Assembly: GCA_015492645.1 (NCBI GenBank)
Contig: WGER01000001.1
Coordinates: 15,926-79,925, forward strand
Direction of reading: 5' to 3'
DNA: 64,000 nucleotides
Origin: Nitrospirota bacterium
GTDB taxonomy: Bacteria > Nitrospirota > Thermodesulfovibrionia > Thermodesulfovibrionales > JdFR-85
Positions 11,915-59,173 of the stretch are shown one piece after another. A program made the position numbers and the translations under genes. Below the pieces are notes generated by a model. That model ran no database searches. It worked only from the letters and a program-made list of their open reading frames with translations, and had not been told where the DNA came from. Position 1 is the first letter of the stretch; each line of letters starts with the position of its first letter.

Positions 11915-11918
11915 CCCC

Positions 11919-30335: not shown

Positions 30336-30337
30336 AG

Positions 30338-31297
30338 ATGGTGAGGTTATTGTTCTCTGCGCTGATAATTGTCTTTGCTGTCCTTGGCTGTTCAAGGGAG
30401 GAATCTGTAAGGGAGTACAGGCCACCGGAGTTCAAGGGGAGGGCCTATGTGCTGCCAGAAGGTGCTGACCATATTGCTGTTGTCTCGCTCAAGGATGGTA
30501 GCCTTAATTCAATAAAGATCTCCTCTCCTGCAAACCAGGTAATCAAGACAGACGAGGGTACATTATATATCCTCGGTAAGGACGGCATTCTCAGTGTCTT
30601 TGATATAAACAACCACAGGATGGTAAAGACCTACAGGGTTGGAGTAAACCTGTGTGGCGGGGCATTAGATGACAGGGGCAGGGTGTGGGTAACGGATGTG
30701 GGAACACAGCGGCTCCTGTTGTTTGATCCTTCACAGCAGAAGGTGCTTGATGGAGTGGAGATTCCAGAGGGGCTCTGCGGGGTTATTTTTGACAGGAACA
30801 GGGGAAGCCTCTACCTGATTGACAGGAGGCAATCCGCTCTACTTGTTTTTGATCTGAAGTCCAAGAAGGTTGTTGACAGGATTCCCTCTATTGGAAACTC
30901 TGTCCACCTGGGAGCACTTTCTCCTGCCGGGGACAGCCTCTGGATTGCCGAAGGTAATGAATACAGGGATGGCAGGCCCTACGGGGTGGGTTTTGCCAGG
31001 ACAGAGGCTATGCCAGGTGGTATAAATATAGTGGACCTTAAACTGAAACAGATGGTTGATTTCATATTGGTGGGTGGTAACACAGTGGACATAGGGTTCT
31101 CACCAGACGGTGGGCTTGCCTATGCCGTCTCCAGCCAGATGGCAGAATACGATGATGCTTCTCTTGCTGTAATAGATGTCAGGACCAGAAGGGTTATAAA
31201 GACTTACTCACTCTGTAAGCCCTGTCATGTAAAGACATCTCCAGGTGTCAAACTTGAGAGGGCGTTCGTAAGGTCTGTAGCCCTCGAATTGGAGTGA
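30338..31297 (+). CDS. YVTN-type beta-propeller lipoprotein with C-terminal CxxCH motif (paralogue of 39855-40919)
   Basis: Lipobox VLGC. Repeated ...G..YV.D blades. The C-terminal half aligns with 39855-40919, including EGNE..G.PYGVG and YS.CK.CH. Confidence 0.7.
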   Translation: MVRLLFSALIIVFAVLGCSREESVREYRPPEFKGRAYVLPEGADHIAVVSLKDGSLNSIKISSPANQVIKTDEGTLYILGKDGILSVFDINNHRMVKTYRVGVNLCGGALDDRGRVWVTDVGTQRLLLFDPSQQKVLDGVEIPEGLCGVIFDRNRGSLYLIDRRQSALLVFDLKSKKVVDRIPSIGNSVHLGALSPAGDSLWIAEGNEYRDGRPYGVGFARTEAMPGGINIVDLKLKQMVDFILVGGNTVDIGFSPDGGLAYAVSSQMAEYDDASLAVIDVRTRRVIKTYSLCKPCHVKTSPGVKLERAFVRSVALELE

Positions 31298-31300
31298 TTC

Positions 31301-32998
31301 CTATCTCTCCCCCTGCCTGATAGCAAGGTAAGGCTCCATCCTGGAGGCCCGGAGGGCAGGATAAAACCCTGAGACAAGACCCACTAACAGGGATATAAGC
31401 ACTGTCGATAGGGCCACCACCATCACCACTGAAGGCGGTGGCCATATATAAAGGAGATTCAGGGCACTCATTATCCTGTTCTTAAATACCAGTAATAATA
31501 CAGTTCCCCAGAGGATTCCAATAATTCCGCCTATGGTGGTAAGGACAATTGCTTCACCAAGGACCATCCTGAACACATGGACCCTTCTGGCCCCTACCGC
31601 TCTGAGGAGTCCTATCTCTCTCAGTCTTTCAGTAACGCTCATACTGAAGACGACTGCAAGTATAAGGGTCCCCATTCCGAGTAAGAGGAGTATCGGTAGA
31701 AAGAGGCTCTTTATCATGGAGATAAGGTGTCTCTTCACCGTTATAGTGGATTCCTTCACCTTGACCACATCCACCTCCGGAAAGGCATCCTTTATCCTCC
31801 TGACAAAGGCATCCACATCCACCCCATCCTTTGTCTTGATAAAGATTGCAGATATCCCCTCAGGGTCTATCTCCTCTGGAGAGGGGATATTTTCAGGGCC
31901 AAAAAGGTGAGTAAAGGAGTCATCCCTGATCTGTTTCCTCTTTTCCACCTCTCCCGCCTCTACCCTGGACTTCACATCTCTCAGTGCGATTCTTATACCG
32001 GTGTAGGGCACAAAGATGGAGTTATCGAAGTAGCCGACCCCTGTAGGGTCAAGACTGGCCACCACATTGAAACTCCTTCCAAAGAGATCTATCTTCTGTC
32101 CAGGATAGAACTTCACTCCTCTGCCCACAACAAGGTCATATGGCCCCTGCCTTCTCTTCAGTTTATAGTTTATCCATGGGGCCACTGTAAAGTCGGTTTC
32201 AGGATCATAGGCTATTATCAGTACATTCTCCACTATACAACACACCAGATAGGAAAAGGGCTGGACAAATAACTGGGAGGTGATCCTGTCCACCTCAGGA
32301 AACCTGCTCAAGCCATCGAATATCCCCTTTTTCAGATAAAATGTGGTTGGACCCCCGCTCAGAAGGACGGTCTTTGCCTCCACCTGTCTGCCCTTGGGTA
32401 CAACCATGAGGTCTGCACCCAGCCTGCCCGCCCCTATCTCAAGGGCATTCTCAACACTCTCCGTCAGAAGCATGTCCATGAAGAGTGCACCAAGGACTAT
32501 AACCAGACTGAGAACTACAGTGGTGGTCCTGAATCTCCGCATCCCGAGATTCGCCTTTATCAGTAAGGGGAGGGTGATCCTCCTTGCCTGTCTCCTTCTG
32601 AACAGGTAGTGGGCCAGGAATACAAAGAGGACAAGAAGTGCCAGTATCAGGAGGGACTCCCTGAGGTGAGTATGTGCCCTTATAGAGTTGGTCTGAGCAA
32701 GGATAACAATCGGTTCCTCCGTGCCCAGATAGAAACTCACAGGCCTCAATGCCAGGGCCTGGATGACGGTAAGCAGGGAAAGGGGAATGAGCAAAAGAAT
32801 GATTCCCCTCTTTTTCAGGTACAATAACCCCACAATTCCGATTGCCACTCCAAGGTATATCTCTGGATGGTACCATACAGAACATTCTGTAAGAAGAAGC
32901 GCCCCTGTTCCACCTTTAAACAATCCAAGGGGCAGGAGAAAGTGGGGCAGGATTATGTAAAGTGTCCCTATGACCAGCAGTACAAGGCTTATAAGCAT
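31301..32998 (-). CDS. MacB/FtsX-family ABC permease with ~140 aa N-terminal 4-TM extension
   Basis: The FtsX C-terminal 3-TM bundle and periplasmic domain (RLGADLMVVPKG...DPETDF) are paralogous to 38266-39477. An extra N-terminal hydrophobic region is present. Start at 32998 or 33001. Confidence 0.8.
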   Translation of the reverse strand: MLISLVLLVIGTLYIILPHFLLPLGLFKGGTGALLLTECSVWYHPEIYLGVAIGIVGLLYLKKRGIILLLIPLSLLTVIQALALRPVSFYLGTEEPIVILAQTNSIRAHTHLRESLLILALLVLFVFLAHYLFRRRQARRITLPLLIKANLGMRRFRTTTVVLSLVIVLGALFMDMLLTESVENALEIGAGRLGADLMVVPKGRQVEAKTVLLSGGPTTFYLKKGIFDGLSRFPEVDRITSQLFVQPFSYLVCCIVENVLIIAYDPETDFTVAPWINYKLKRRQGPYDLVVGRGVKFYPGQKIDLFGRSFNVVASLDPTGVGYFDNSIFVPYTGIRIALRDVKSRVEAGEVEKRKQIRDDSFTHLFGPENIPSPEEIDPEGISAIFIKTKDGVDVDAFVRRIKDAFPEVDVVKVKESTITVKRHLISMIKSLFLPILLLLGMGTLILAVVFSMSVTERLREIGLLRAVGARRVHVFRMVLGEAIVLTTIGGIIGILWGTVLLLVFKNRIMSALNLLYIWPPPSVVMVVALSTVLISLLVGLVSGFYPALRASRMEPYLAIRQGER

Positions 32999-33005
32999 CA
33001 TTTTT

Positions 33006-33014
33006 ATTATAACA
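33006..33014 (-). promoter_or_regulatory. extended -10 box TGTTATAAT (minus strand), 4/7 nt upstream of the tandem ATGs at 33001/32998
   Basis: The minus strand reads TGTTATAAT-AAAA-ATGATG. Suggests an internal promoter for the distal permease. Confidence 0.4.
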
Positions 33015-33066
33015 TATAACCAGCATTAGAGACTCCAATCAGTTTTTTCGGCTGGATTTGTCAGGC

Positions 33067-33142
33067 GGGCAGTGCTGGTTCGGACACAAAGAGACAAAAG
33101 ACGATAGGCAATGAGACGATAGGCAATGGCAGCACTGCACCC
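33067..33142. repeat. tandem 14-nt direct repeat (GACGATAGGCAATG x2, 33100-33113 and 33115-33128) enclosed by a 9-bp inverted repeat (GCAGTGCTG 33069-33077 / CAGCACTGC 33130-33138)
   Basis: Read directly in the 156-nt gap between two minus-strand genes. Confidence 0.6.
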
Positions 33143-33157
33143 TTATTTGATCTAACA

Positions 33158-34156
33158 CTATCCTTCAAGGACAAAGGAGGAAAAGAGCATGGGATAGACT
33201 GAGATGGCCGTAAATACCATCACCGAGATACCGCCAGCAGTTGTCCAGAGCCTCTGCCACCTCCTCAGTGGTAGTTCACTTCTGCCCTTAAAGAACTCTG
33301 ATAGGGATGGGAAGAGCCCAAAAAGGGTCCCCAGAAGAAGACTGATGTAGAGGGGATACCCGACATACCCATAGAGGCCCTGCAGGAGATCAAAGGGGCA
33401 GTGGTGGGTGGGTAGTTCATAGAAGTAGGGGGATATAAAACTGATTATTGATGCTATGCTGACTGGCAGAAAGACCAGTGCCAGTCCCCCCAGCAGATAC
33501 TTTAAGAAGTCCATCTGAAAAACAATGAAGCACAGGGCCACTATGAGGTAAAGGAATACCACAGTAAAGAAGAGATACTCCATCGGTCTGACAGGTGCTC
33601 CAGCAATTGAACTGGCAATTCCACCGGAGTTCTCACTGAAGAGGGCACCACAGCATGAGGTGATGATATTTGGTCTCAGCCCTAAGAAGAATCTCAACTG
33701 AAGGAGTGCCTCTGTTACAAACAGCGGGGTCATGACCAGCAGCAGGGCGTATCTCTTCTTCACAAATGGGACATCCTCTGTCCTCTGGTCCAGGTAATTA
33801 AGGAATATCCAGACTGCTGAGAAAAGGAAGAGGACCAATTTCATGCCAAGGACCCACCACCCAATGGGATTGGCATTGAGTGTGCCTGTGGCACACATGG
33901 CACCCACAAACTGGGTATGAAGATCATCTGCTGTGTATATAAAGAGAAACAGCCCCAGGAGGTTTACCCCGAGGACGAATGAGAGGATAGAGGAGAGCAG
34001 ATAGGTCCTTCTTTCGAGGCTTAATTGGAGGGCTGAACTGCTCTTACTATCCCAGTACCGTATTATCCTCAACCCTGCAAAGGCGCTATAAAGCATCATC
34101 ATATTTACTATTGCAGAACTGCCCAGCAGTGCCACTATCCCTGGATGCAGTATCAC
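33158..34156 (-). CDS. hypothetical polytopic membrane protein (~8-9 TM) with conserved-looking Cys/His motifs
   Basis: 332 aa and highly hydrophobic. Motifs MCATG, SCCGA and THHCPF. Overlaps the stop of the upstream ABC ATPase by 4 nt. Confidence 0.6.
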   Translation of the reverse strand: MILHPGIVALLGSSAIVNMMMLYSAFAGLRIIRYWDSKSSSALQLSLERRTYLLSSILSFVLGVNLLGLFLFIYTADDLHTQFVGAMCATGTLNANPIGWWVLGMKLVLFLFSAVWIFLNYLDQRTEDVPFVKKRYALLLVMTPLFVTEALLQLRFFLGLRPNIITSCCGALFSENSGGIASSIAGAPVRPMEYLFFTVVFLYLIVALCFIVFQMDFLKYLLGGLALVFLPVSIASIISFISPYFYELPTHHCPFDLLQGLYGYVGYPLYISLLLGTLFGLFPSLSEFFKGRSELPLRRWQRLWTTAGGISVMVFTAISVYPMLFSSFVLEG

Positions 34157-34836
34157 TGCCCTTCCTCAAGGATTATACCATCACGCATATGGATCACCCT
34201 GTCAACCAGAGACGATTCGTACACCAGGGGATCATGGGTGGCTATTACCACTGTCTTTCCTGCCCCCTTTATTTCTGAGATCATCCTCAGAAATTCCTCG
34301 GAGAGGTGGGTGTCCAGATGGGCTGTGGGTTCATCCGCAAGGACAATCTCAGGATCATTCACCAGTGCCCTCGCAATCGCCACCCTCTGCTGTTCACCCC
34401 CTGAGAGTTGCTCTACCCTGAAATTGGCCCTATGCGATATCTGTAGGAGGTCCATGACCTCCTCTGTCCTCCTTTTTATCTCTCCCAGTGATACCCCGGC
34501 AGGATAAAGTGGCAGCATTATATTCTCCTTCACCGTTATTCCTCTCAACAGATTGAACTGCTGGAAGATGAATCCACATCTCTGGCGTCTTATCTCCGTG
34601 AGAAACCTCTCGGGCAGTTTTGCAACATCTCTGCCATTGACCAGCACCCTGCCTGATGTGGGTCGACTCATACATCCGATAATGCTCAACAGAGAGGTCT
34701 TTCCTGATCCACTTGGCCCTTTCAGGATAACCACCTCATTTTTACCTATCCTGAGGGAGACACCCTTTACCGCGTGGACTTCATTCGGCTGACCCGGGTT
34801 GTATATCTTTGTTACATCCTCTAAGACGATGGCCAT
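34153..34836 (-). CDS. ABC transporter ATP-binding protein (MacB/LolD-type)
   Basis: Walker A GPSGSGKTS, signature LSGGEQQR and Walker B ILADEP. Confidence 0.9.
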   Translation of the reverse strand: MAIVLEDVTKIYNPGQPNEVHAVKGVSLRIGKNEVVILKGPSGSGKTSLLSIIGCMSRPTSGRVLVNGRDVAKLPERFLTEIRRQRCGFIFQQFNLLRGITVKENIMLPLYPAGVSLGEIKRRTEEVMDLLQISHRANFRVEQLSGGEQQRVAIARALVNDPEIVLADEPTAHLDTHLSEEFLRMISEIKGAGKTVVIATHDPLVYESSLVDRVIHMRDGIILEEGQ

Positions 34837-34837
34837 C

Positions 34838-35986
34838 TCAGGACCTTATCACCTCCTCAGGGTCTGTCATGGCAGCCTTCCAGGATGGTGCTATAGTGGC
34901 AGCCATATAGGGGACAACAGTGAGAAACAAGAGGACCATTAATTGGTATACCTCAATTACAGGCCTCAGTTTCAATGATGGAAAGAGCACCGACCATCCC
35001 TTAAGGGCTGACTCCAGCAGGGGGGCACCCAGCATGAACACATGGACAAAACCTGTTATGGTGCCAGTAAGGTAGGCCAGGGAAGAAAGGACAAGCCCTT
35101 CCCAGAACTTCATCTCCATTATATCAGAGGAGTCCCATCCTATCGCCTTCAGAACCCCTATCTCCCTTCTCTCCTCTGCAGAAAGTCCCGTTGCCTTGTC
35201 CCATGCAAAGATGAAGAAGGCGAGCAGTGCTCCTATGAACATACTCAGGACCATACCACTACGCCAGTCAAAAAGCGATTCATATGTCCTGAGGATCTCT
35301 GTACGTGTGATGGGCCTTGAAGAGGGTATCTTCTCCTTTATCTTCTTTGCTATGGTATCTATCTCAGAGGGATTTGCAACCCTCACCACAAGATCAACCG
35401 CATATCCCTCAGGAATCTGGAAGAACCTCTTTATCGTTTCCTCTTTGAGGACCACAAGGTCATTGGTGAGAATGGATGAGGATGTACTGAAGACTCCTGC
35501 CACCCTGAAGGGTCTTGCAATCCCCTCTGGGTCCACCATTACGAGACTGTCTCCTGTCCTGAGTAAGCCCGTTTCAGAGACACCACTTCCGATGAGACAG
35601 TCTTCAGGATCAAGATCTTCTCTACCCTTCAGAGGGAATTCGGAAGACCTTACCCCAAGGACTGTGAAGTTGGCTCCGGTGAAGGGGTCGTAATAGTATC
35701 CCCAGTATCTGGGGCTGGCATCAATAACCCCTGGAATAGAGACGATAGTATCCACCCAGTCAACTGGCACTAAGGCATGTCTGCCTGCCATGAGCCTCTG
35801 GACTGTTATCTCCGGGGATGACTGTAGCAGTAGTTCTGCCTCCCTTTTAAGGGCATGGGTCAAAAAGAGGATGGAGGAGATTATAAAGATGAGAAGAGAG
35901 TAGGCGACCAGAAGGGCCAGGTTCTTGTAACGTCTCCTGCAGAGCCCGGAGAGTGCAAACTCCAGTATAAACAGGTGACGTCTCAT
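34838..35986 (-). CDS. FtsX-family ABC transporter permease
   Basis: 4 TM with a large periplasmic loop and a C-terminal FtsX bundle. Start moved to ATG 35986 (ATGA overlap with the upstream small ORF). Confidence 0.8.
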   Translation of the reverse strand: MRRHLFILEFALSGLCRRRYKNLALLVAYSLLIFIISSILFLTHALKREAELLLQSSPEITVQRLMAGRHALVPVDWVDTIVSIPGVIDASPRYWGYYYDPFTGANFTVLGVRSSEFPLKGREDLDPEDCLIGSGVSETGLLRTGDSLVMVDPEGIARPFRVAGVFSTSSSILTNDLVVLKEETIKRFFQIPEGYAVDLVVRVANPSEIDTIAKKIKEKIPSSRPITRTEILRTYESLFDWRSGMVLSMFIGALLAFFIFAWDKATGLSAEERREIGVLKAIGWDSSDIMEMKFWEGLVLSSLAYLTGTITGFVHVFMLGAPLLESALKGWSVLFPSLKLRPVIEVYQLMVLLFLTVVPYMAATIAPSWKAAMTDPEEVIRS

Positions 35987-36285
35987 GGTATCTCCTCGGG
36001 TCTCCTTAGATGGGGAGGTACAGAGACTATAGAGCCTGATGGAAAGTGCTCCAGACAGCCTGGACAGTCTTGGAAGGCACTGAAAAGATCTGTCTGTGAT
36101 GGGTGTCGTGTGTACCTCGCCTCTGTCCATATTGAAAGGTCAGTGAGCATCAGGGAGGTCACCAGATCCTTCAATCCCGTAAGACGGACGAACTCCGTTT
36201 GTCCCCTGTAATGACCCCACAACAGGAGTCCCAGCAGTATCAGGCTCTCCGTAATGAGTAATATCAGAAATCTCCTGTATTTCAT
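35983..36285 (-). CDS. hypothetical small membrane-anchored protein
   Basis: 100 aa with an N-terminal TM. Translationally coupled (ATGA) to the downstream permease. AGAGGAAA RBS. Confidence 0.45.
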   Translation of the reverse strand: MKYRRFLILLITESLILLGLLLWGHYRGQTEFVRLTGLKDLVTSLMLTDLSIWTEARYTRHPSQTDLFSAFQDCPGCLEHFPSGSIVSVPPHLRRPEEIP

Positions 36286-36334: not shown

Positions 36335-36841
36335 TTACATCCCCTTCATCCCTTTCATCTTGTGGTGCTTCATCACCGGCAGGTCCGCCGGGGTCACCTC
36401 AGAGAACCTGATCATCTTTCTGCCCTTGTGGTCCTTCATGAAGGTCTCGGCATTTGCCTTCCCCTTAACAGGGATCAGTTCTGCACCCATCGGGCCCATC
36501 ACATCGCTGCCAACAATGAAGTACAGGTCCTCCTCATCAGCCCTTATTAACTTCGTGGTGTAGTACTCTGTCACATACAGTGCCTTTATCTGGGATTTGT
36601 CCTTACCGTATTTAGAGAGGTTGAAGTAGTACCTGAACATGTCCTTTGGTCCGTCAAAGAAGGCGTAACTGCCATCTGTGAACTCGATCTCTGCCACCCA
36701 GTTGGGGTATGGCTTGACCGCCATACCACAGACAGGACATTTGTCTTTATCACCTGGATGCTTTGGTCCCTCTGCAAGCCCATAACCAGCAGAGGTCATT
36801 ATTAAGAAACAAATAGACAGAACACACAGGACCTTCTTCAT
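36335..36841 (-). CDS. nosL: NosL-family copper chaperone-like lipoprotein/periplasmic protein
   Basis: Signal peptide, CPVCGM motif and a His/Met-rich tail (HHKMKGMKGM). Confidence 0.8.
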   Translation of the reverse strand: MKKVLCVLSICFLIMTSAGYGLAEGPKHPGDKDKCPVCGMAVKPYPNWVAEIEFTDGSYAFFDGPKDMFRYYFNLSKYGKDKSQIKALYVTEYYTTKLIRADEEDLYFIVGSDVMGPMGAELIPVKGKANAETFMKDHKGRKMIRFSEVTPADLPVMKHHKMKGMKGM

Positions 36842-36895
36842 AACAGACCTCCTTTTCAGTAAAGATTTCTGGATCGGATATGAAATGTCTGTGGG

Positions 36896-37186
36896 TTATG
36901 CCTCTGGTGGTTTAAAGACCTTTGAGGGGATCAACAGTTTATAAAGTGAGTCAGCGGAATACTGGAGAACCTCGCTGATATCATAAGAGAATGCTATCTC
37001 CGTCTGGGGTTCAAAAATCGTGCTTGAGAGGTCTGCAATGAGCCCTCTCGTCTTCTTTGAACATGTATCCAGAGAAAGGGCAACCTTCTGGCCTTTTCCA
37101 TTTATAGAATAGACCGGGGTAAGGACAGCAAAGAATATACTGGCAACAAAGATAAAAAGAATACATACGAGTAAAGGTTTTCTCAT
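36896..37186 (-). CDS. hypothetical small exported/membrane-anchored protein
   Basis: 96 aa with an N-terminal hydrophobic helix. ATGA overlap with the upstream PCuAC-like gene. Confidence 0.4.
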   Translation of the reverse strand: MRKPLLVCILFIFVASIFFAVLTPVYSINGKGQKVALSLDTCSKKTRGLIADLSSTIFEPQTEIAFSYDISEVLQYSADSLYKLLIPSKVFKPPEA

Positions 37187-37599
37187 AGTCTCTTCACCCC
37201 TGCGGTTATCTCAATCTCACCGCTTCTTTGAAACTGAAGTACAATGGTTACCTTCTCAGGCAGGTCATCAGGCAGTCCAAAGAGCATCAGGTGTTTGCTG
37301 CCCGGTTTTAGTTCCAGTTCAGAGTTAGACCTTATCACCATTTTCTGAACCTTTTTCATTCTTCCACCCTGGATATCATGGAGTTCACAGACGACACCAG
37401 GGTATCCCTTGAGGCCACATCCCACAAGTATATCCTCTCCACTGCCATCGTTCAGGATAAGCATAAATACCGAACCAACAGACCTCTTTGTGGAGACCAG
37501 TTGAGGCCATTTTATCGAAAGGAGGGGCTCCCCCTTTTCGCAGGCCAACAGCATCAGGGGCAGAATTAACCAGGTGATCATCTTTTTAACCGTTTTCAA
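37183..37599 (-). CDS. PCu(A)C-like (DUF461) periplasmic copper chaperone lipoprotein
   Basis: Lipobox LLAC. ELH...M...M...PGSKHLML pattern (H/M ... HxM) typical of PCuAC. Confidence 0.6.
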   Translation of the reverse strand: MKTVKKMITWLILPLMLLACEKGEPLLSIKWPQLVSTKRSVGSVFMLILNDGSGEDILVGCGLKGYPGVVCELHDIQGGRMKKVQKMVIRSNSELELKPGSKHLMLFGLPDDLPEKVTIVLQFQRSGEIEITAGVKRL

Positions 37600-38269
37600 T
37601 CTGAAGCCTCCCGCGAGCCATCCTGTACACCCTATTGGTCAGTTTTGCCAGGGCCGAGTTGTGAGTGACCATAATGAACGTTATCTGATTCTCACGATTC
37701 ATCTTCTGGAAAAACTCCATCACCTCAGCCTCTGTCTCCTCATCAAGGTCACCTGTGGGTTCATCAGCCAGGATTATCTGTGGTCTGTTTATAAAGGCCC
37801 TTGCAATGGCAACCCTCCTCTGCTGTCCACCACTCAACTGCGCTGGATAGGAGTTTACCTTGTCGTCTATCTTTAGCATCTTCAACAGTTCAATCGCATA
37901 CTCATAGGGATCTGTCTTTTCCCTGCTGAAGGCTGTGGGCAGGAGGACATTCTCAATCACGTTCAGGGTGGGCACCAGACTGGCAAACTGGTATATAAAA
38001 TTTATCTTTCTGTTTCTCAACTCACTCAGTTCATCGTCACTTATTGCCCAGATATCCGTACCATCAATGATGACAGTGCCAGAGTCGGGCTTGGTGAGAC
38101 CACCTATAAGGCTCAAGAGCGTGGTCTTACCACTGCCAGAATGGCCGAGTATAGACAGAAAATCCCCCCTCTGGACGGTGAATGAGACATTGTCCACCGC
38201 CTTGATTACATCTGACCCCACCCTGTATGTCTTCGTGAGGTCTTTCACTTCAATTATCGCATCCATCAT
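37586..38269 (-). CDS. ABC transporter ATP-binding protein (MacB/LolD-type)
   Basis: Walker A GHSGSGKTT, signature LSGGQQRR and Walker B ILADEP. Confidence 0.9.
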   Translation of the reverse strand: MMDAIIEVKDLTKTYRVGSDVIKAVDNVSFTVQRGDFLSILGHSGSGKTTLLSLIGGLTKPDSGTVIIDGTDIWAISDDELSELRNRKINFIYQFASLVPTLNVIENVLLPTAFSREKTDPYEYAIELLKMLKIDDKVNSYPAQLSGGQQRRVAIARAFINRPQIILADEPTGDLDEETEAEVMEFFQKMNRENQITFIMVTHNSALAKLTNRVYRMARGRLQIENG

Positions 38270-39477
38270 TCACCTCTCCTTATCGCATTATAGGGTTCCA
38301 TGATCATGGATCTTATTGCTGGATATAGAGCAGCTCCCACCCCTGTAATAAGAGACAGTGTTATACAGAGTACTATAAGTACCAGATACTCCCCTACGGA
38401 AGGCCATAGATAGGGGATGTTTAGTGCCTCTCTGATATGGCCCCTGAAGATATACAGAAAGGCACCTCCACCGATGATACCAAGGATACCGCCTATTAAA
38501 GACAGCATCGTCGCTTCTGTCATGATCAATTGAAAGATGTTTCGTCTCTTTGCCCCCATTGCCCTGAGGAGTCCAATCTCTCTCTGGCGTTCATTTACTA
38601 TCATGGAAAAGACGACACCTATCAACAGGAGGGCCATTATCCAGAGTATAAGGCTTACAGAGAGGATACTCCTGAGGAGGATGAAGAGTTGTCTCCTCAC
38701 AGAGGCTATCACCTGTTCAGCCTCTATAGCCTTTACTCCATCAACATCATGTTCAATAAATATGGCCACCCTCCTGGCACTTATTTCAGGGTCTACCTGG
38801 ACAAGGACGGTTGATATCTTGTTCACTGGGAGGTTTGCAGGGACAACACCCTTTTTTTTCTTTGATTCTTCTGCCAGTTTCTTCAGAGCATCATAGGGCA
38901 TGAACACAGAGTTATCTATAAAGTCCATCCCTGTCTCCTCAAGTATACCAACCACCTCAAATTCCTTACCGTAGAACCTTATCTTTGAGCCAACTGTATA
39001 GGCGGTGATCCCTCTACCGATAATCACCTCTTCGGTGCCGAGCGGTCTTGTGAGTTCCTTCGAAAGCCAGGGCATGATAGTAAAATCTGTCTCTGGGTCG
39101 AACCCTATAAGGAGCATGTTGGCCAGGTCACAGCACTGGTATGAGGCACTCTGAAGAAAGACCTGAGATGATGCCCTCTTTACACCCCGCACCCTTCTTA
39201 CCTTCTCCTCGACCTCTCTGTCCATATAAAAGATAGAGGGTTCTCCTGCAAGGAGGGCCGTTTTTGCCTTCGCCTCTGCCTCTGCAGGCACCACCATGAT
39301 GTCGGCACCGAGTCTGGCTGTCCCCCTTTTCAGGCTCCTCTCCACAGACTCTATCACAGTGGTTACAGCAAACAGTGTCCCCGCAACCACCATCACAGAG
39401 GCCACAATAGCGGTGCTTCTGAAGAGTTTCCTTCTGAGGTTTTTTCTTGCTATATGGAAAAGGCTTATACGTGCCAC
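38266..39477 (-). CDS. MacB/FtsX-family ABC transporter permease
   Basis: 403 aa. RLGADIMVVP...DPETDF periplasmic domain and a C-terminal FtsX bundle. Paralogue of 31301-32998. Confidence 0.85.
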   Translation of the reverse strand: MARISLFHIARKNLRRKLFRSTAIVASVMVVAGTLFAVTTVIESVERSLKRGTARLGADIMVVPAEAEAKAKTALLAGEPSIFYMDREVEEKVRRVRGVKRASSQVFLQSASYQCCDLANMLLIGFDPETDFTIMPWLSKELTRPLGTEEVIIGRGITAYTVGSKIRFYGKEFEVVGILEETGMDFIDNSVFMPYDALKKLAEESKKKKGVVPANLPVNKISTVLVQVDPEISARRVAIFIEHDVDGVKAIEAEQVIASVRRQLFILLRSILSVSLILWIMALLLIGVVFSMIVNERQREIGLLRAMGAKRRNIFQLIMTEATMLSLIGGILGIIGGGAFLYIFRGHIREALNIPYLWPSVGEYLVLIVLCITLSLITGVGAALYPAIRSMIMEPYNAIRRGE

Positions 39478-39535
39478 TTTGGTCTCCTTTTTTTATATAT
39501 TGGGTTTTAATTATTTGCTATAGACCTCTGAGAAG

Positions 39536-39805
39536 TCAAGTTAAAGGTGGTCTGTCAATCCTGTGAATGGGAGGAAAGGGTATATACAGGAATACACTGA
39601 AAGAGCCCTGAATGGGCCTGCAGTGGTAGAACCAGATGTATGAGACCGGTACAATAACAAGTATTGGATAAAAGATGTGATGTGTCTTATGTTTACACAC
39701 ATCTATGACAAGCCCATGAGACTCTGAAATGGGACCGGCAAGATAGAATGCACCGATAGAGTAGAAGACAAGTAATAGAACTATGATGAAGAGAATCTTC
39801 TTCAT
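39536..39805 (-). CDS. hypothetical small membrane protein
   Basis: 89 aa with 2-3 hydrophobic segments and His/Cys residues (CKHKTHH, YHC). Confidence 0.4.
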   Translation of the reverse strand: MKKILFIIVLLLVFYSIGAFYLAGPISESHGLVIDVCKHKTHHIFYPILVIVPVSYIWFYHCRPIQGSFSVFLYIPFPPIHRIDRPPLT

Positions 39806-39854
39806 AACTTAAGAATGCCTGGAGGAGAAATACCCTCCTCCAGGCACCATTTCC

Positions 39855-40919
39855 TTACTGTTCCAGGTCTATTGCCTTCTTCGGGAAGCCCTTTCTGTTC
39901 CAGTCAATGTCGATTCCGCAGAGGAATGGTCTTCCTCCGTCTTTTTCCTCTGGAATCACCACACCAAGGGCACCGTGGCACTTCTTACAGGCAGAGTAGA
40001 CCTTCACGACCCTCTTTGTCTTGGTGTCAATCACCACGATACCGCTGTCGTCCTGCTCAGGGACCTGTCTCACGGCAGCGAGGGCGAACCTTCCGTCAGG
40101 GGTGAAGTCTACATCATGGGGGTTACCACCTGTGATGATAAAGTCCTTCACCTTGCCAGTCTTGGCATCAACGACGACAACACCACCAGGGGCACCACCT
40201 GCCTCGGCATAGCCCACGCCATAGGGCTTGCCACCTTTCAGTTCATTACCCTCGGACTGCCATATTTCTGTCCCCTGGGGATTGAGTCTTGCACGGTGAA
40301 TGAAGTTACCGACACCCTCAATCTTACCAATAACCTTTTTGGTTTTTACATCCACAATGCTTATAAACCCACCGGGCATGTCACTGATATAGGCCTTTTT
40401 GCCATCCTTTGAGAAGGTGATGCCACATATGGACTTGCTGACAGGGAAACTGTCCAGGAGTTTGTGGGTCTTCGGGTCATAGACATAGACATGGCCATCA
40501 GCCATATCAGAGACCCATACAGTACCATCAGGGGCGATATTGGACCCACAGTGTTTTTTACCCAACTTGATCCAGTCGGTCTGTTTGCCCGTCTCCAGGT
40601 CGATCTCCTTTGCATAGCCATCCAGGCTGAATACATAAAGGGTCTTACCGTCCTTTGAGAGTGTGAGGGCGTCTGAATCCTTGCCGTGGGGTATCCTTGC
40701 AACCTTTCCTGTTACAAGGTCAACAAGGGCAACGTGACCGCCGTGAGTCTGGATGTAGGCAACGCCTTTTGTGAACTTAACACCTGCCCTTTCAACACCG
40801 GCTGCCGGACTCTGAGGCACTTCATAGCACTCACCCTTGCCGATTGCAGCATAAACGGAGGGAATAACAAGAACCATAATTAACATTGATAGACCAAGTA
40901 CCATCAATACCTTCTTCAT
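39855..40919 (-). CDS. secreted YVTN-type beta-propeller protein with C-terminal CxxCH motif
   Basis: Signal peptide. Repeated PDG/KDG..YV.D blades. SACKKCHG near the C-terminus. GGGAGGAAG RBS. Confidence 0.75.
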   Translation of the reverse strand: MKKVLMVLGLSMLIMVLVIPSVYAAIGKGECYEVPQSPAAGVERAGVKFTKGVAYIQTHGGHVALVDLVTGKVARIPHGKDSDALTLSKDGKTLYVFSLDGYAKEIDLETGKQTDWIKLGKKHCGSNIAPDGTVWVSDMADGHVYVYDPKTHKLLDSFPVSKSICGITFSKDGKKAYISDMPGGFISIVDVKTKKVIGKIEGVGNFIHRARLNPQGTEIWQSEGNELKGGKPYGVGYAEAGGAPGGVVVVDAKTGKVKDFIITGGNPHDVDFTPDGRFALAAVRQVPEQDDSGIVVIDTKTKRVVKVYSACKKCHGALGVVIPEEKDGGRPFLCGIDIDWNRKGFPKKAIDLEQ

Positions 40920-41106
40920 ACTTCCTCCCCTTTCTTTTGGAGTTTTTTGTTTCTCCTAATTAGTATCCCTCAGAACACCTACATTACCTTCTCTGGCTAC
41001 CACCCCCTTTCCTGAGTCTTTCCTGCAATTATAGTGTAAAAATTTTTTTTGCGGCTGTCAACTTCAATTTCAAATTTTAGAGCATCTGTTAATGTCAATT
41101 TGGAGT

Positions 41107-41126
41107 CCGGGGGGTATACCCCCCGG
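41107..41126 (-). terminator. perfect 8-bp GC hairpin just downstream of the extended YeeE stop
   Basis: CCGGGGGG-TATA-CCCCCCGG, 6 nt after the TAA at 41133-41135 (minus strand). Confidence 0.55.
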
Positions 41127-41132
41127 ATCCCC

Positions 41133-42185
41133 TTAGATATCCAAGTCCTTCATCGGCTTTATAAACAGGAAATAGACCATCGTCCAGTTACCGAGGACAA
41201 TAAAAATTGTGGCCACTATGCTTGAGATAGCCAAGGTTGACACGCCTGTCAACCCGTGTCCAACGTTTCAACCTCCGCCCACAGTGGCTCCGAATCCCAT
41301 TATGAGACCACCCACAAAGACCCTCAGTAGTTCCTCTGCACCAGGGGCCTTCAGTTTGAACTCCTTCAGTCCTATTGCACTTAGGGCCGCCCCGAGCGGG
41401 GTGCCGAGCACGAGCATGGCGCTCCAGGTAGGCTCCTTTCCCTTAAGAATAAAATTAAAGAGTTCTCTCGTTGGCCCGGTGTAGGAGACACCCCTTGCGC
41501 CACCACCCCATTTCTCTGAGGCGAACCAAGCGAGTACTATCACAACACCGATCAGTAAGCCGGCCACAGGCCACGGGTAACCCTTCTGTGGTTTCTGGTA
41601 TTTGCCCTTCAGCAGGATCGGGATCACTATCACAACAATGGCTGCAATAACTATCCATTTATTCACACCTATGATATTGTAAAGGGTAGGAACCTGTGTT
41701 TCGAGAGTGGTTTCTTCGAGCTGGGCATCGGTCATCAACTTCAGTCCCTGCTCAGTCTGCCAGATGTGTATGCTGGTCAGAAAGTTGTAAACCGGCTTGA
41801 GTATTCCATCCCTTGTTGTGAATATCCCTATCATGAAGCCCAGGACTGCAACCCAGGCAGCAAACAACCCCTCACCCACACGGTACCAGATACCGCTTCC
41901 ACAGCCACCTGCCAGCACTATCCCGAGACCGAAGATATAGCCCCCGATTATATTTGCCAGGGGAAAGAATGCCTGTCTCCTGAGTTCTTCGATCACTCCA
42001 ACATCTTCCAGGAGGTTCGCACCAATAATGGATACCACCAATGCAACCAGATAGGCCTTGAAGAGAGTAAAGTCATTGATGAAGATCAAGTCTCTGAAGG
42101 CAGTATTCATGCAGTAACGACCTCTCTGCAGGACCCACCCCGTGATTATACCCACCAGAAGGCCTGTGATGACAAGCGCTACCAT
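41133..42185 (-). CDS. YeeE/YedE-family sulfur (thiosulfate/selenium?) transporter, with in-frame TGA (41268-41270) read as selenocysteine
   Basis: The ORF track stops at GFGATVGGG-TGA. Read-through gives U-NVGHGLTGVSTLAISSIVATIFIVLG..., aligning residue for residue with the paralogue 60663-61892 (GFGAVVAKG-C-NIGQGMSGFSTLSAGSLVTVLFIILG). The 350-aa product matches family length. Confidence 0.8.
41234..41255 (-). promoter_or_regulatory. SECIS-like hairpin downstream of UGA 41270-41268
   Basis: The minus strand reads GGGTTGACA-GGCG-TGTCAACCT: 8 Watson-Crick pairs plus 1 GU, with a G-rich loop. It starts 12 nt after the UGA. Confidence 0.65.
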
Positions 42186-42264
42186 AAAGCCCTCCCTCTT
42201 CCCTTTCTTTTTAAGGGCTACGCCCCTCTTTTTATGAGAAAAATATTAGAGGATAACAGGGTGG

Positions 42265-43290
42265 TCAGTCAATAGGGGAATGATTAAAAATGCTTATAGA
42301 ATCTTTTATTTTATTAATCACTTCTTCTGGTCTGACCCCATTCATGCAACTGGTGTGCTCGCAGGTCCTTTTGAAACAGGGCCTGCATGGAAGGTCTGTC
42401 TTCAGGACATTCTGGATCTGTCCATAAGGGCCGGTTAGTTCTTCACTGGTGGGACCGAATATAGCAAACACAGGGGTGTCCATTGCCGCAGCAAGGTGCA
42501 TTGGACCAGAGTCATTGGTGAGCATAAACCTTGCCCCCTTGAGTACTGACGCAAGTGTTTTCAGGTCTGTCCTGCCTGTAAGGTCAATACATTCCACACC
42601 ACTCATCTCCGATATCTCCTTCGCCAGTTCGGTGTCAGAGGCGCCTCCGACAATCACTGGTGTGAGTGAGGGGAGCATGTGCTTTAAAAGGCCTATCGTC
42701 TCAGAGAAGTGTCCTGTAGGCCATATCTTTGTCTTCCACCTTGCACCGGGGGCCACCACATAGTAGGGGGTTCTAACAGGCGTTGGTGGTAGATGTGGTA
42801 ATGGAAACTCAACCCCGCCAGGGACAATCCCTATCAAAGGCAGGAGTTTCAAATATCTCTCAACAGCATGGGTCTTTCCACCTGCAGTGCTTCTGTTGTA
42901 AAACAAAGGGCTCCCTTCCCTTGCATCACTGAATCCCACCCTTAGAGGTGCACCGGAGACAAACGTGAGTATTCCACTCCTGAAGAGCCCCTGAATATCA
43001 AGGACCACATCATAGGCCTCTCTCCTGAAAGACATTTTTAGAAGGATTACATCCCTGAAAAACCTGATCACCCCCATTGGTCCCCTCCAACGGTCCTTGC
43101 TTACTACCCAGAGCCTGTTCAACATGGGATGTCCTCTCAGCAGACCATCAAACCCAGAGGCAACCAACCAGTCTATGTAGAACTCACCTGACCTGTAGAT
43201 CTGACTGAGTACCGGGAGGGTATGCACTATATCGCCGAGTGAACTCGGTTTTATAATTAATAGTCTCTTCTTGTCTCTGGACTCAGACAT
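42265..43290 (-). CDS. glycosyltransferase family 9 (heptosyltransferase-like)
   Basis: LLIIKPSSLGDIVHTLPVL N-terminus and ...NDSGPMHLAAA... motif. Confidence 0.85.
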   Translation of the reverse strand: MSESRDKKRLLIIKPSSLGDIVHTLPVLSQIYRSGEFYIDWLVASGFDGLLRGHPMLNRLWVVSKDRWRGPMGVIRFFRDVILLKMSFRREAYDVVLDIQGLFRSGILTFVSGAPLRVGFSDAREGSPLFYNRSTAGGKTHAVERYLKLLPLIGIVPGGVEFPLPHLPPTPVRTPYYVVAPGARWKTKIWPTGHFSETIGLLKHMLPSLTPVIVGGASDTELAKEISEMSGVECIDLTGRTDLKTLASVLKGARFMLTNDSGPMHLAAAMDTPVFAIFGPTSEELTGPYGQIQNVLKTDLPCRPCFKRTCEHTSCMNGVRPEEVINKIKDSISIFNHSPID

Positions 43291-46460: not shown

Positions 46461-47512
46461 GCACGGGAAGGTTCTATCTCTTCATGCTCATAGGGATAAC
46501 CGGGATCCTTGCATATCTGTCCTTTCAGATAATAAGACCCTTTCTGACACCTATAGCATGGGCAATAGTTATGACAGTGGTCTTCTATCCCCTCTATGCA
46601 TATATTACGAGGTTCATAAGGTGGAAAGGCCTGGCTTCAGGACTAACCCTGGTGGTTGTTGCACTGATTATTATAGGACCATTCACATATCTTCTGGTAA
46701 ACCTTGCAGTGGAGATCAGGGACTTTCTCCATTATCTAAATACCAAGGGTATACCACAGATTGATGGATGGATGAAGACTGAAAGGGTAATCCTTTTGCA
46801 GGAACGCCTGAAAGAGGCATTGAACTTGAAGGAACTTGACCTGTCCTCCATGGTCTCCACTGCGGTCACCCGCTTGGGCAGGTCTGTACTGAGCAATGTC
46901 ACCACAGGGGTGGCCAATGTGGCATCTGTAGTTATAAACTTTGTATTTATGCTGTTTGCCATGTTCTTCATGCTGAAGGACGGCCCCGGATTCGTAGCAA
47001 GAATAGGTGACTACCTACCCTTTTCAGACCGACAGAAGGACAGACTCGCCACACAGATGAAGGATATGGTGATATCCACCATTTATGGAGGGGTTGTGGT
47101 CTCAGTTATACAGGGAATTCTTGGTGGCATAACCTTTCTGTTGCTCGGTCTTGGCGCACCAGTGCTTCTGGGTACTGCCACCGCAATAATGTCATTCATC
47201 CCTGCCCTCGGGGCCTTTGGAGTATGGGGCCCGGTCCTCGTCTATCTCATTGTGAAGAAACTCTACCTGAAGGCAATTATACTTTTTTTTGTAGGAACCT
47301 TTATAATAAGTATGGTGGACAATTTCCTGAAGCCCGTTATTATCAGCGGGCGTACCAGAATGCCCACGCTCCTGATATTTTTTAGTGTCCTCGGTGGATT
47401 GAGGTTCTTTGGCCTGATAGGTCTCGTCCTGGGGCCTCTTGTGATAGCAATGTTTATATCGGTTATTGAGATATTCAGAAATCTGGAAGGAGGTAGGTAT
47501 GGTAAGCCGTGA
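46457..47512 (+). CDS. AI-2E (PerM/UPF0118) family transporter
   Basis: 351 aa, ~8 TM, with ...DNFLKP.I... and GLIGLVLGP motifs. Confidence 0.8.
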   Translation: MSTGRFYLFMLIGITGILAYLSFQIIRPFLTPIAWAIVMTVVFYPLYAYITRFIRWKGLASGLTLVVVALIIIGPFTYLLVNLAVEIRDFLHYLNTKGIPQIDGWMKTERVILLQERLKEALNLKELDLSSMVSTAVTRLGRSVLSNVTTGVANVASVVINFVFMLFAMFFMLKDGPGFVARIGDYLPFSDRQKDRLATQMKDMVISTIYGGVVVSVIQGILGGITFLLLGLGAPVLLGTATAIMSFIPALGAFGVWGPVLVYLIVKKLYLKAIILFFVGTFIISMVDNFLKPVIISGRTRMPTLLIFFSVLGGLRFFGLIGLVLGPLVIAMFISVIEIFRNLEGGRYGKP

Positions 47513-48623
47513 AGAGTTGAGAGAACTGGAAGAGATCACAGCAGGTGAACACTATTATGTGAGCCTCTATCTTAATGTTGATCCAATTACAAATCCGAAG
47601 GGGGAATACATCACCCACCTGAAGAATCTCATAAAGGAGGCTGAAGAGAATACGCCCAAGGAGATATATAAGTCAATAAAGGGTGACATTGAAAGGATTG
47701 AATCTTATATAGTTACCAATAAGAGGGAGTTCAAAAGGGCGCTGGTGATATTTTCTTCTGGAATGACCGGCCTCTGGAGGATCTATCATCTGTCAGTGCC
47801 GGTAAAGAATCAACTCGTAATCGACATGACCCCCTGCATTGAACCACTGCTGGACCTGATAGATAATTACCCGAGATATCTTGTGCTTATTATAGACAAG
47901 GAACATGGGAGGGTTTTTATAGTACAGCAGTCAGAGATCATGGAGTATGCCATGGTACACACCCCTGATGTGCCGGGCAAACACAAAAAAGGGGGATGGT
48001 TTGCACTTGCAGAAAAAAACTATCAGCGACATATAGACTACCATGTAGGAATACATTTAAAGGAGGTTGAAAAGACCCTTGAGGACCTTCTACATAATGA
48101 GAGGATCGATATCATCTTTGTTGGGGGGCACGAAGAGGCGAGGACAAGATTTCTCCAGATATTGCCCCAGCATATCAGGGAGAAGGTGAAGGGGGAATTC
48201 AATGCGGAGATCCTTATAAGACCGGATGACGTCCTTCAGAAGGTCAGTCCATTAATACAGGAATATGAGAGGCAGAAGGAGAGGGGGTTGCTGGAGAGGC
48301 TCATAACCAAGGCACTGAAAGGTGATGCTGCAGTGCTTGGAGTGGATGATACAATCACAGCCCTCTGGGAGGGGAAGGTGCATATACTTGTTATTGATAG
48401 GGACCTTGCCATGAGTGGATTCAGATGTAAGGGATGCGGGTTTCTTACTGTCAACCATATGGATATCTGTCCTTACTGTGCTAATAATATGGAAGAGGTA
48501 GAGCATATAGGTGATTACATGTCTCAGAAGGCCCTTGAACAGGGTGCTACAGTTGAGGTTATTGCCTATGAAAAGGATCTGCTGAGAGAAAGGGGTGGTG
48601 TTGGGGCGATACTCCGGTACTGA
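47499..48623 (+). CDS. bacterial eRF1-like (baeRF/VLRF1-type) protein with C-terminal zinc ribbon
   Basis: C-terminal ...VLGVDDT..AL..G.V..L........CxxC...CPYC....E...........GA.VE.I.......GGVGAILRY. Start at ATG 47499 behind GGAGG. Confidence 0.6.
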   Translation: MVSREELRELEEITAGEHYYVSLYLNVDPITNPKGEYITHLKNLIKEAEENTPKEIYKSIKGDIERIESYIVTNKREFKRALVIFSSGMTGLWRIYHLSVPVKNQLVIDMTPCIEPLLDLIDNYPRYLVLIIDKEHGRVFIVQQSEIMEYAMVHTPDVPGKHKKGGWFALAEKNYQRHIDYHVGIHLKEVEKTLEDLLHNERIDIIFVGGHEEARTRFLQILPQHIREKVKGEFNAEILIRPDDVLQKVSPLIQEYERQKERGLLERLITKALKGDAAVLGVDDTITALWEGKVHILVIDRDLAMSGFRCKGCGFLTVNHMDICPYCANNMEEVEHIGDYMSQKALEQGATVEVIAYEKDLLRERGGVGAILRY

Positions 48624-48697: not shown

Positions 48698-49057
48698 ATG
48701 AAAATCACATCATTAATGCTGTCCGTTTTAGGGGTTCTGCTCGTTGCAGGACTGGTCTTTGCGGGAGGTGATATACAGAGGGGCAAGGCCCTCTTTGATG
48801 ACCCCTCCCTCGGTACAAATGGTAAGAGTTGTTCCAGTTGTCATCCAGAAGGGAGAGGGATTAATGGACAGAAAGAGAGTTTCACAATTATGGGTAAAAA
48901 GCAGGCAACAATTGAAGATGCAATTAACTTCTGCATCCAGAATGCCCTGAAGGGTCAGGCACTCTCAAAGGACTCACCAAAGATGAAGGATCTGGCAGCC
49001 TATCTAAAGACACTGAAGGGAGAAAAGAGAAAGAGGAAGAGAATAAAAGGTTGTTAA
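48698..49057 (+). CDS. periplasmic monoheme c-type cytochrome
   Basis: Signal peptide, a single CSSCH and a Lys/Arg-rich tail. AAGGAGG RBS. Confidence 0.75.
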   Translation: MKITSLMLSVLGVLLVAGLVFAGGDIQRGKALFDDPSLGTNGKSCSSCHPEGRGINGQKESFTIMGKKQATIEDAINFCIQNALKGQALSKDSPKMKDLAAYLKTLKGEKRKRKRIKGC

Positions 49058-50786: not shown

Positions 50787-51185
50787 ATGGCGGCAAAGAA
50801 GATGGCGATTGTGGCCAGCAAGGCCACCCTTGACATGGCTTATGCCCCACTTGTAATTGGAGCAACTGCTGCCACACTTGATGCAGATGTGAGGATATTC
50901 TTTGCCTTTGGTGGTCTTAATATCCTCCACAGGGAGAAGAACAGGAATCTGCCACCTCCACAGGGAATGGAGGAACTCCCTCAACTGGCTAACAATGTCG
51001 GTTGGGCAGGCATACCAGAGATGCTCCAGATGTGTAAGGATGCCGGCGTTAAACTGATCGCCTGTTCCGCAACAATGAAGATGCTTGGTTACAAGGAAGA
51101 AGACCTGATCGAGGGTGTCGAGGTAGCCGATGCCGACAGATTTGTAGAGTTCGCACTCGAGGCAGACTCTACCCTATTTATTTAG
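50787..51185 (+). CDS. DsrE/DsrF/DsrH-like family protein (cytoplasmic)
   Basis: 132 aa. MAIVASKATLD... and ...KLIACSATM... conserved-Cys pattern. Confidence 0.7.
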   Translation: MAAKKMAIVASKATLDMAYAPLVIGATAATLDADVRIFFAFGGLNILHREKNRNLPPPQGMEELPQLANNVGWAGIPEMLQMCKDAGVKLIACSATMKMLGYKEEDLIEGVEVADADRFVEFALEADSTLFI

Positions 51186-52808: not shown

Positions 52809-52824
52809 TGGCACATCTTTTGCT
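52809..52824 (+). promoter_or_regulatory. sigma-54 (-24/-12) promoter TGGCAC-N5-TTGCT
   Basis: Exact match to the TGGCAC-N5-TTGCW consensus. A TATAAT box (52826-52831) overlaps just downstream. The first ATG of the following gene is at 52838. Confidence 0.7.
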
Positions 52825-52837
52825 ATATAATGTTGTC

Positions 52838-53215
52838 ATGAGACAGATGATGATACACTGGGCTGTGTTTCTTATCCTTATTACTTCAGTTTATGCAGGT
52901 CCCTCTAAGAGACTTCTGTTTTTTTATGATGAAAGTTGTAAATGGTGTGAATATATGCAGAAGGTCCTGGAGGATAGGGATGTGAAGAGAATGTTGCATG
53001 AAATAGAGGTTATAAAGATAGATACGCAGAATAACAGAAAAATCGGTCCATGGGGCAAAACCGCAAGGGAATTAACAGACCTCTACATGATCAGGAGTGT
53101 ACCTACGCTCATTTTTGAGGAAGAGGGTGGCAAGGAACTGCTCAGGATACCAGGCGCTATAGAAAAGAAGGACTTGGTTGATTTGCTCTGTGAGTATATC
53201 CTTAGTAAGTGTTAG
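52838..53215 (+). CDS. exported thioredoxin-fold protein (CxxC)
   Basis: Signal peptide and CKWC motif in a thioredoxin-like context (...FFYDESCKWCEYM...SVPTLIF). Start moved from TTG 52820, which lies inside the promoter, to ATG 52838. Confidence 0.7.
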   Translation: MRQMMIHWAVFLILITSVYAGPSKRLLFFYDESCKWCEYMQKVLEDRDVKRMLHEIEVIKIDTQNNRKIGPWGKTARELTDLYMIRSVPTLIFEEEGGKELLRIPGAIEKKDLVDLLCEYILSKC

Positions 53216-54239: not shown

Positions 54240-54256
54240 ACTCAGGAGGACAGGGG

Positions 54257-54589: not shown

Positions 54590-54598
54590 GGGAAGATC

Positions 54599-56260: not shown

Positions 56261-56267
56261 TCATTAA

Positions 56268-59172: not shown

Positions 59173-59173
59173 A

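Follow-up and report, generated by a model that had tools for sequence, protein, structure and literature searches.

A 64,000-nucleotide stretch of the genome of a Nitrospirota bacterium (GenBank assembly GCA_015492645.1, contig WGER01000001.1, positions 15,926 to 79,925 of the forward strand; hereafter the window, numbered from its first letter) carries on its minus strand a gene for a membrane transporter of the YeeE/YedE family that is interrupted by an in-frame TGA codon. This gene very probably encodes a full-length, selenocysteine (Sec)-containing transporter of the YeeE/TsuA type, in which the outermost of three pore cysteines is Sec. Comparative sequence evidence strongly supports the decoding of the UGA at 41268-41270 as Sec, not as a stop. 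An earlier reading of the sequence (the original prediction) had proposed that Sec replaces a conserved pathway cysteine in a transporter of the YeeE type, and this is now supported by the recurrence of TGA at the same column in relatives, by selection on the tail that follows it and by a hairpin specific to the TGA forms. Two further observations speak for it: TGA serves as a normal stop codon elsewhere in the window, and a DsbC homologue provides a second candidate case. Within Nitrospirota the Sec form of the transporter occurs fairly widely, and its annotation is systematically wrong; it is no new kind of system.

The UGA Codon and the Pore Cysteines

The predicted coding sequence of the YeeE/TsuA-like selenoprotein spans 41133-42185 on the minus strand, from an ATG at 42185 to a TAA at 41133-41135, and would give a protein of 350 residues with U at position 306. 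Gene callers end the open reading frame (ORF) at the TGA, immediately 3′ of ...GFGATVGGG, exactly where the original prediction had placed its end. Reading past the TGA yields U-NVGHGLTGVSTLAISSIVATIFIVLGNWTMVYFLFIKPMKDLDI, that is, 44 sense codons and then the TAA; the extent of the tail had thus been given correctly, the earlier count of 45 codons having included the stop. This 44-codon tail (41136-41267, minus strand) completes loop LD and adds the final transmembrane helix (...GNWTMVYFLFIKPMKDLDI), and its conservation extends to all Sec and Cys relatives.

With an amino acid at the UGA, membership in the family holds over the whole domain. The read-through product matches the Pfam family Sulf_transp (PF04143) along the entire profile (positions 1-310 of 310; residues 21-335; 246.7 bits, with a gathering cut-off of 27), a coverage that needs the read-through, as the domain would be incomplete at its end in the 305-residue truncated form. 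Among NCBIfam models, the two for TsuA match best, NF052577 (285.8 vs. a cut-off of 400) and NF041049 (182.9 vs. 645). On these scores the transporter is TsuA-like, with TsuA as its best subfamily, but no equivalog by the NCBI criterion. The YedE/FdhT models NF033796 and TIGR04112 score 88.2 (cut-off 350) and 50.2 (cut-off 200), with partial matches in the N-terminal half.

The nearest solved structure is that of Spirochaeta thermophila YeeE/TsuA (StYeeE; 6LEO), aligned over residues 2-330 with E = 1.2e-58, and the paucity of gaps in this alignment suggests nine transmembrane helices and the same hourglass fold. All three conserved positions of the pore loops LA, LB and LD can be located in it as C25, C95 and U306. 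Cys25 (TGC, 42111-42113, minus strand) corresponds to StYeeE Cys22, the pore cysteine on the cytoplasmic side, and Cys95 (TGT, 41901-41903, minus strand), in a GGCGSG motif, corresponds to the central pore cysteine Cys91. The first two positions are thus ordinary Cys codons, and the position in loop LD is the UGA, which is aligned with Cys293, the Cys of GGCNIGH in 6LEO, and with Cys302 of E. coli YeeE. C293 of StYeeE, situated in the periplasmic indentation, contacts thiosulfate at “position I” of the crystal, and the C293A variant is inactive; in E. coli YeeE, even replacement of the equivalent pore cysteines by Ser is not tolerated (PMC7449682). Inside the window, a Cys-containing paralogue (60663-61892, plus strand) can be aligned with the transporter along the full length (E = 6e-33, 27% identity), and Cys365 of this paralogue (TGT at 61755) then falls opposite the TGA, which bears out the original claim that the tail matches this paralogue and that the TGA sits on a conserved Cys.

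Recurrence of the Codon, the Tail and the Hairpin Among Relatives

A genome scan with one genome per species, in which the window's own genome was not represented, returned 80 related loci, all of them from Nitrospirota (class Thermodesulfovibrionia and its relatives), the best match being 76% identical. The column is TGA in fourteen of these loci, two of them in a subgroup with the motif GGU-TVGHA; together with three loci from metagenomes or other assemblies, this makes 17 further TGA loci. Counted as distinct forms, the column is TGA in 16 Sec forms and TGT or TGC in 67 Cys forms. The tails of all the TGA loci are in frame, conserved, 41-44 codons long and end in ...FIKPM.D. Codon differences among the Sec forms are predominantly synonymous (2136, vs. 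946 non-synonymous) and fall mainly at third positions (789, 292 and 2667 differences at the three codon positions), a pattern indicating that the tail downstream of the UGA is under purifying selection. Two hallmarks of selenoprotein genes, a UGA opposite a Cys in homologues and coding conservation 3′ of that UGA, are therefore both found here, and the comparison of orthologues that the original prediction had suggested as a check came out in its favor.

The same picture emerges from protein records. In a large protein database, the truncated call for the window's gene (P0001) and four relatives at 68-75% identity (P0014, P0018, P0020, and P0024) all end after the same ...GG, amid many full-length Cys relatives at 67-77% identity; the contigs of these truncated relatives have TGA at the column and then an in-frame tail of 41-43 codons ending in ...FIKPMKD/E. 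The public record P0024 (GCA_002897815.1), for instance, presents the Sec form as a 308-residue “putative inner membrane protein,” and at another locus (L004, 5804-5902) the tail has been called as a separate ORF of 32 residues. A further genome with a Sec form is GCA_015492515.1. Since the GenBank records of Sec forms are truncated, current pipelines evidently do not recognize the Sec site. A search of 50%-identity representatives retrieved only one fragment, P0293, that ends exactly before the Cys column; as Sec and Cys forms share clusters, such representatives do not help to count the former.

In a neighbor-joining tree, Sec and Cys forms are interleaved, with at least four Sec groups, and this topology shows a repeated interchange of the two versions within this clade. 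Sec and Cys versions also coexist as paralogues in some genomes: the metagenome-assembled genome (MAG) CAYMRS01 holds one Cys copy and one Sec copy (L045 and L083). Another MAG, JALUSH01, holds two Sec-form copies of the transporter (L015 and L018).

A bacterial selenocysteine insertion sequence (bSECIS) hairpin recruits SelB·GTP·Sec-tRNA(Sec) to the ribosome, and Sec is delivered at the UGA. A hairpin of this type lies within the coding sequence at 41229-41261 (minus strand, -13.3 kcal/mol), with an upper stem formed by 41255-41247 and 41242-41234, the loop GGCG at 41246-41243, and a short lower stem outside. Its core, GGGUUGACA-GGCG-UGUCAACCU (41255-41234, -12.3 kcal/mol), starts 12 nucleotides (nt) past the UGA, just as originally described. 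The published bSECIS model calls for a loop of 3-9 nt with G in its first two positions, an upper stem of 4-16 bp, a distance of 16-37 nt between UGA and loop, and a free energy of at most -7.5 kcal/mol. With a 4-nt loop that starts with GG, a 9-bp upper stem, 21 nt between UGA and loop, and -12.3 kcal/mol, the core falls within every one of these bounds, and the hairpin thus fits the bacterial SECIS model that had been proposed earlier as a check for this region.

Pairing in this hairpin separates the two forms of the gene. In a fixed register of 14 pairs, the 16 distinct Sec forms make 10-14 pairs (mean 12.3) vs. 3-11 pairs (mean 7.4) for the 67 distinct Cys forms, a difference with a Mann-Whitney p = 6e-10 on related, phylogenetically non-independent sequences. 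Even Cys forms with the identical peptide GHGLTGVSTLA make only 8-10 of the 14 pairs, and the pairing of the Sec forms must therefore reflect the choice of codons rather than the amino acids encoded. In the alignment of Sec forms, 88% of the cells are paired, vs. 27-47% when the partner columns are slid, and compensatory changes are seen at three stem pairs, e.g., GCGCUGACA/UGUCAGC in L072 and GCC-CUGACA/UGUCAGGC in L083. A near-identical SECIS sequence is found in clades that are only ~52% identical. A few Cys forms (L022, L037) retain 6-7 of the 9 pairs of the upper stem, and these partial hairpins may be decaying SECIS remnants left after Sec-to-Cys replacement.

Selenium Use and Competing Explanations

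TGA ends 43 of the 74 ORFs in the window and is the commonest stop codon there, which argues for site-specific recoding and not for a variant genetic code; a genome-wide reassignment of TGA was rejected on this count. Scanning the window for read-through of TGA with a Cys nearby returned only one other gene, all remaining hits falling in non-coding frames. This gene (11102-11917, plus strand) encodes a homologue of the DsbC family of thiol:disulfide isomerases, which gene callers break into two ORFs. Its UGA (11534-11536) stands at the first Cys of DPD-C-PFC, a column that is Cys in all nine aligned homologues, and the Thioredoxin_2 domain extends across it; a hairpin follows at 11552-11569 (7 bp, loop AGGU, 22 nt past the UGA, -8.9 kcal/mol). 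Dsb-like proteins with a UxxC motif are already known as a type of selenoprotein, and the DsbC homologue is, from its alignment and hairpin, a probable second selenoprotein of the window. Moreover, three to four selenoproteins have been reported in cultured species of Thermodesulfovibrio (Peng 2016, Table S2). The use of TGA as a stop, the DsbC gene and these selenoproteomes lend indirect support to the use of Sec by the organism.

Several points weigh against the interpretation favored here. ARAGORN and Rfam searches of the window returned only tRNA-Lys and tRNA-Glu and no tRNA-Sec, Pfam scans of about 50 window ORFs returned no SelA, SelB or SelD, and neither the window nor any fetched locus yielded selA, selB, selD or, with ARAGORN, tRNA-Sec. 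The Sec loci are related to one another, so the statistics that compare the hairpin in Sec and Cys forms are phylogenetically non-independent, and covariation in the stem appears modest, most of its positions being invariant and constrained by coding as well. Scores below the NCBIfam TsuA equivalog cut-offs (285.8 vs. 400) also weaken the assignment of a substrate from sequence, and a search across the 64-kb window for an ORF encoding the YeeD/TsuB partner (TusA-like, with a CPxP motif) found none. Finally, a deprotonated selenolate would be a poor partner in S-H...S hydrogen bonds, which makes the functional rationale for Sec at this position speculative.

Against these points must be set what the alternatives would entail. 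If the TGA were a true stop, the gene would encode a truncated or decaying YeeE deprived of its last helix and of its third pore cysteine, and the frame downstream would be a relic. Such a view agrees with the gene callers and with the GenBank records (P0001, P0014, P0018, P0020, and P0024), which end the ORF at the TGA, and with the use of TGA as the ordinary stop codon of this genome. A relic, however, is expected to gain frameshifts and stops, whereas 18 loci in several clades keep an in-frame tail in which changes are mostly synonymous, and the hairpin is maintained in the TGA forms only. As loss of C293 inactivates StYeeE, a protein truncated before this position is unlikely to work, and yet it has been conserved. 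A true stop is therefore very improbable. We regard as highly implausible, too, a split gene in which the 305-residue protein assembles in the membrane with a separately initiated tail peptide of ~35-44 residues. Short, half-size members of the family do exist in PmpA/PmpB (PMC11582611), for which an assembly of the two halves has been proposed, and the 32-residue ORF called within the tail in the L004 record could be taken as a trace of such an arrangement, but neither a start codon nor a ribosome-binding site is conserved in the tail, the cysteine lost through the split would be precisely the essential one, and neither the TGA-only hairpin nor the position of the break, always on the Cys codon, would be explained.

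A different possibility is that the UGA is read through without selenium, by near-cognate insertion of Trp or Cys or by insertion of Cys through the Sec machinery, with a hairpin that merely slows the ribosome. Stem-loops 3′ of stop codons may indeed stimulate read-through in some systems, and the Sec machinery was not seen in the window or in the fetched loci. On the other hand, all homologues without TGA have Cys at the column, which is the standard signature of Sec/Cys exchange; the hairpin fits the bSECIS model in full, down to its spacing and the G of its loop; the DsbC gene of the same window has another UGA opposite Cys, also accompanied by a similar hairpin; and relatives at the genus level are known users of Sec. 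Selenium-free read-through is accordingly improbable. As for an assembly or sequencing error, TGA is a single base away from either Cys codon, TGT or TGC, but three independent contigs (from NCBI, from Logan, and one of 110 kb), including GCA_027053865.1, encode exactly the same protein, and TGA is present in 17 other loci from different studies. The identity of the gene on independent contigs excludes such an error for practical purposes, and its probability is negligible. Sec insertion at the UGA thus stands as the preferred reading.

Genomic Setting, Proposed Function and Known Systems

The Sec gene is flanked on one side by a gene for a family-9 glycosyltransferase and on the other by a cluster with genes for a beta-propeller protein, an ABC transporter, PCuAC and NosL, and it appears to be monocistronic. 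A promoter-like site at 42243-42272 on the minus strand (TTGACT, an 18-nt spacer and TAATAT; 9 of 12 matches in a consensus scan), ~58 nt upstream of the ATG, offers weak evidence for its own transcription start. Directly 3′ of the TAA lies the G+C-rich hairpin noticed originally (41102-41132, minus strand), which proved to have 13 bp and a free energy of -27.1 kcal/mol; a terminator scan made no call there because the hairpin lacks a T-tract, and it could be either a terminator or a transcript-stabilizing element. An operon that would join the Sec gene to the downstream beta-propeller/ABC/PCuAC/NosL cluster was considered and rejected, since the arrangement is not shared by all Sec loci (it is found in L001, L004, and L007, and not in L005 and L006) and since a strong hairpin separates the genes. 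This downstream cluster is one of two similar, adjacent clusters, mostly on the minus strand (29203-36130 and 36335-40919), with beta-propeller proteins (cytochrome-D1/YncE-like), MacB/FtsX permeases and an ABC ATPase; the one at 36335-40919, directly downstream of the Sec gene, additionally holds the copper chaperones PCuAC and NosL.

Genes related to sulfur oxidation occupy another part of the window. A cluster at 53281-62368 (plus strand) encodes a DsrE-like protein, SoxY, SoxZ, a SoxB-like phosphoesterase/5′-nucleotidase, a periplasmic binding protein, and a two-component system (histidine kinase plus sigma-54 response regulator); next come the YeeE paralogue with Cys (60663-61892) and a DUF302 protein. 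The layout of the cluster resembles the arrangement of SoxT importers/signal transducers. Nearby genes encode a protein with a SoxA/TsdA-type cytochrome c domain (48698-49057), a DsrE/DsrF/DsrH-like protein (50787-51185) and a thioredoxin-like protein (52820-53215). Elsewhere in the window are a protein with a bacterial archaeo-eukaryotic release-factor family 10 (baeRF) domain (47466-48623, plus strand) and a small protein of ~124 residues with an RF-1 domain (10054-10428, plus strand); both are related to termination or ribosome rescue and have no obvious tie to UGA recoding.

In the mechanism proposed for the Sec gene, the stem-loop, whose loop starts with GG 21 nt past the UGA, would recruit SelB, Sec would be inserted, and translation would proceed for 44 more codons to the TAA. 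Placed at the position of StYeeE Cys293, the Sec residue would form the periplasmic entrance of a three-residue relay in a protein that may import thiosulfate or a related sulfane-sulfur species. As a selenolate, it would have a low pKa, be deprotonated at neutral pH, act as a strong nucleophile and resist irreversible over-oxidation, properties that could raise the reactivity or the robustness of a capture site exposed to the periplasm. The published model of YeeE transport consists of S-H...S hydrogen bonds. A selenolate would seem better suited to transient covalent chemistry, by analogy with what has been discussed for SoxT and the “fourth cysteine” of YeeD. Pairs of Sec and Cys forms classically mark catalytic, redox-active cysteines. 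We tentatively raise the possibility, itself rather unlikely, that the pore cysteines are nucleophilic or redox-active and that transport proceeds through covalent S-S or Se-S intermediates, with sulfane sulfur or thiosulfonate moved by group translocation. This view draws on the presence of Sec at the capture Cys here and at the central GxSG Cys in a form already catalogued, and it contrasts with the hydrogen-bond relay, a model derived from the crystal structure. That the Sec clade handles selenium species is a weaker variant of the same view.

In at least 18 loci, including 14 of the 80 species-level loci from Nitrospirota, the transporter is currently annotated ~13% too short, without an essential residue and without its last helix, and these annotations would be mended by a rule that allows for Sec at the GG-U-[NT]-x-G-H site. 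A Sec/Cys pair at a residue that contacts thiosulfate also provides a natural experiment on hydrogen-bond vs. covalent chalcogen relay in the YeeE pore, and the interleaved Sec and Cys forms offer a compact case for repeated Sec/Cys exchange and for the decay of an RNA element after the loss of Sec.

Among characterized proteins, those closest to the Sec transporter are the YeeE/TsuA proteins of S. thermophila (6LEO, 6LEP, and 8J4C) and E. coli, with which it shares full-length alignment, the Pfam domain, the three pore positions, the motifs RGRxC, GGCxSG and GGxNxGH, and an Arg-containing loop LC. It differs from them in that the third, periplasm-facing Cys is a UGA, in a TsuA score below cut-off, in having no adjacent or fused YeeD/TsuB partner, and in its host, a member of the Thermodesulfovibrionia with Sox and DsrE genes rather than an assimilatory model organism. 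SoxT1A and SoxT1B, an importer and a signal transducer of Hyphomicrobium denitrificans, are likewise full-length YeeE-like proteins with three conserved cysteines, along which the passage of sulfane sulfur has been discussed in the literature. Like soxT, the Cys paralogue of the window stands beside sox-type genes, whereas the Sec gene does not. YedE/FdhT (NF033796, TIGR04112) belongs to the same superfamily, but its models match weakly and partially, in the N-terminal half, and the Sec transporter is not a member. As these scores lie far under cut-off, the link between YedE and selenium known from comparative genomics, which had been invoked for this gene, does not transfer to the TsuA-like Sec transporter.

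The original prediction had also called Sec in a membrane transporter unusual, which is right inasmuch as such cases are rare, although they are not unprecedented. Indeed, a MerT-like mercuric transport protein, an E1-E2 cation ATPase, the SaoP permease and the SO_0444 Cu/Zn efflux protein have a predicted Sec at a Cys that contacts the substrate (PMC13188914); their folds are unrelated and they mostly concern metals or metalloids, whereas the substrate here is likely a sulfur oxyanion or sulfane sulfur. The suggestion that YeeE stood outside the known selenoprotein families overstated the novelty of the case. The “YeeE/YedE family” was listed among prokaryotic selenoproteins in five organisms (Peng 2016, Table S3) and again in a later review (Zhang 2022, PMC9312934), and the most recent compilation gives PF04143 with the motif GUxSG and the representative WP_012471001.1, beside other transporter-associated selenoproteins (Zhang 2026, PMC13188914). 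From these entries it follows that Sec in the YeeE family, and in membrane transporters, was already known as a bioinformatic prediction. The texts and supplements of GOS 2008 and Peng 2016 contain no sequence or motif for the YeeE/YedE selenoproteins, and WP_012471001.1 was found only in the two Zhang reviews.

The catalogued YeeE/YedE selenoproteins and the transporter described here belong to the same Pfam family, have one Sec per protein at a conserved pore-loop cysteine, and are alike bioinformatic predictions. They differ in the loop concerned. The motif GUxSG fits the central GGCxSG loop (Cys91 type), where the transporter of the window retains its Cys (GGCGSG) and thus does not match GUxSG. 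Its own Sec motif is GGU-N-[IVF]-GH or GGU-T-V-GH (Cys293 type), present in the window gene as GGG-U-NVG-H. The Cys293-type loop, set apart from WP_012471001.1 by motif alone, is therefore likely to be a second, previously undescribed Sec site in this transporter family.

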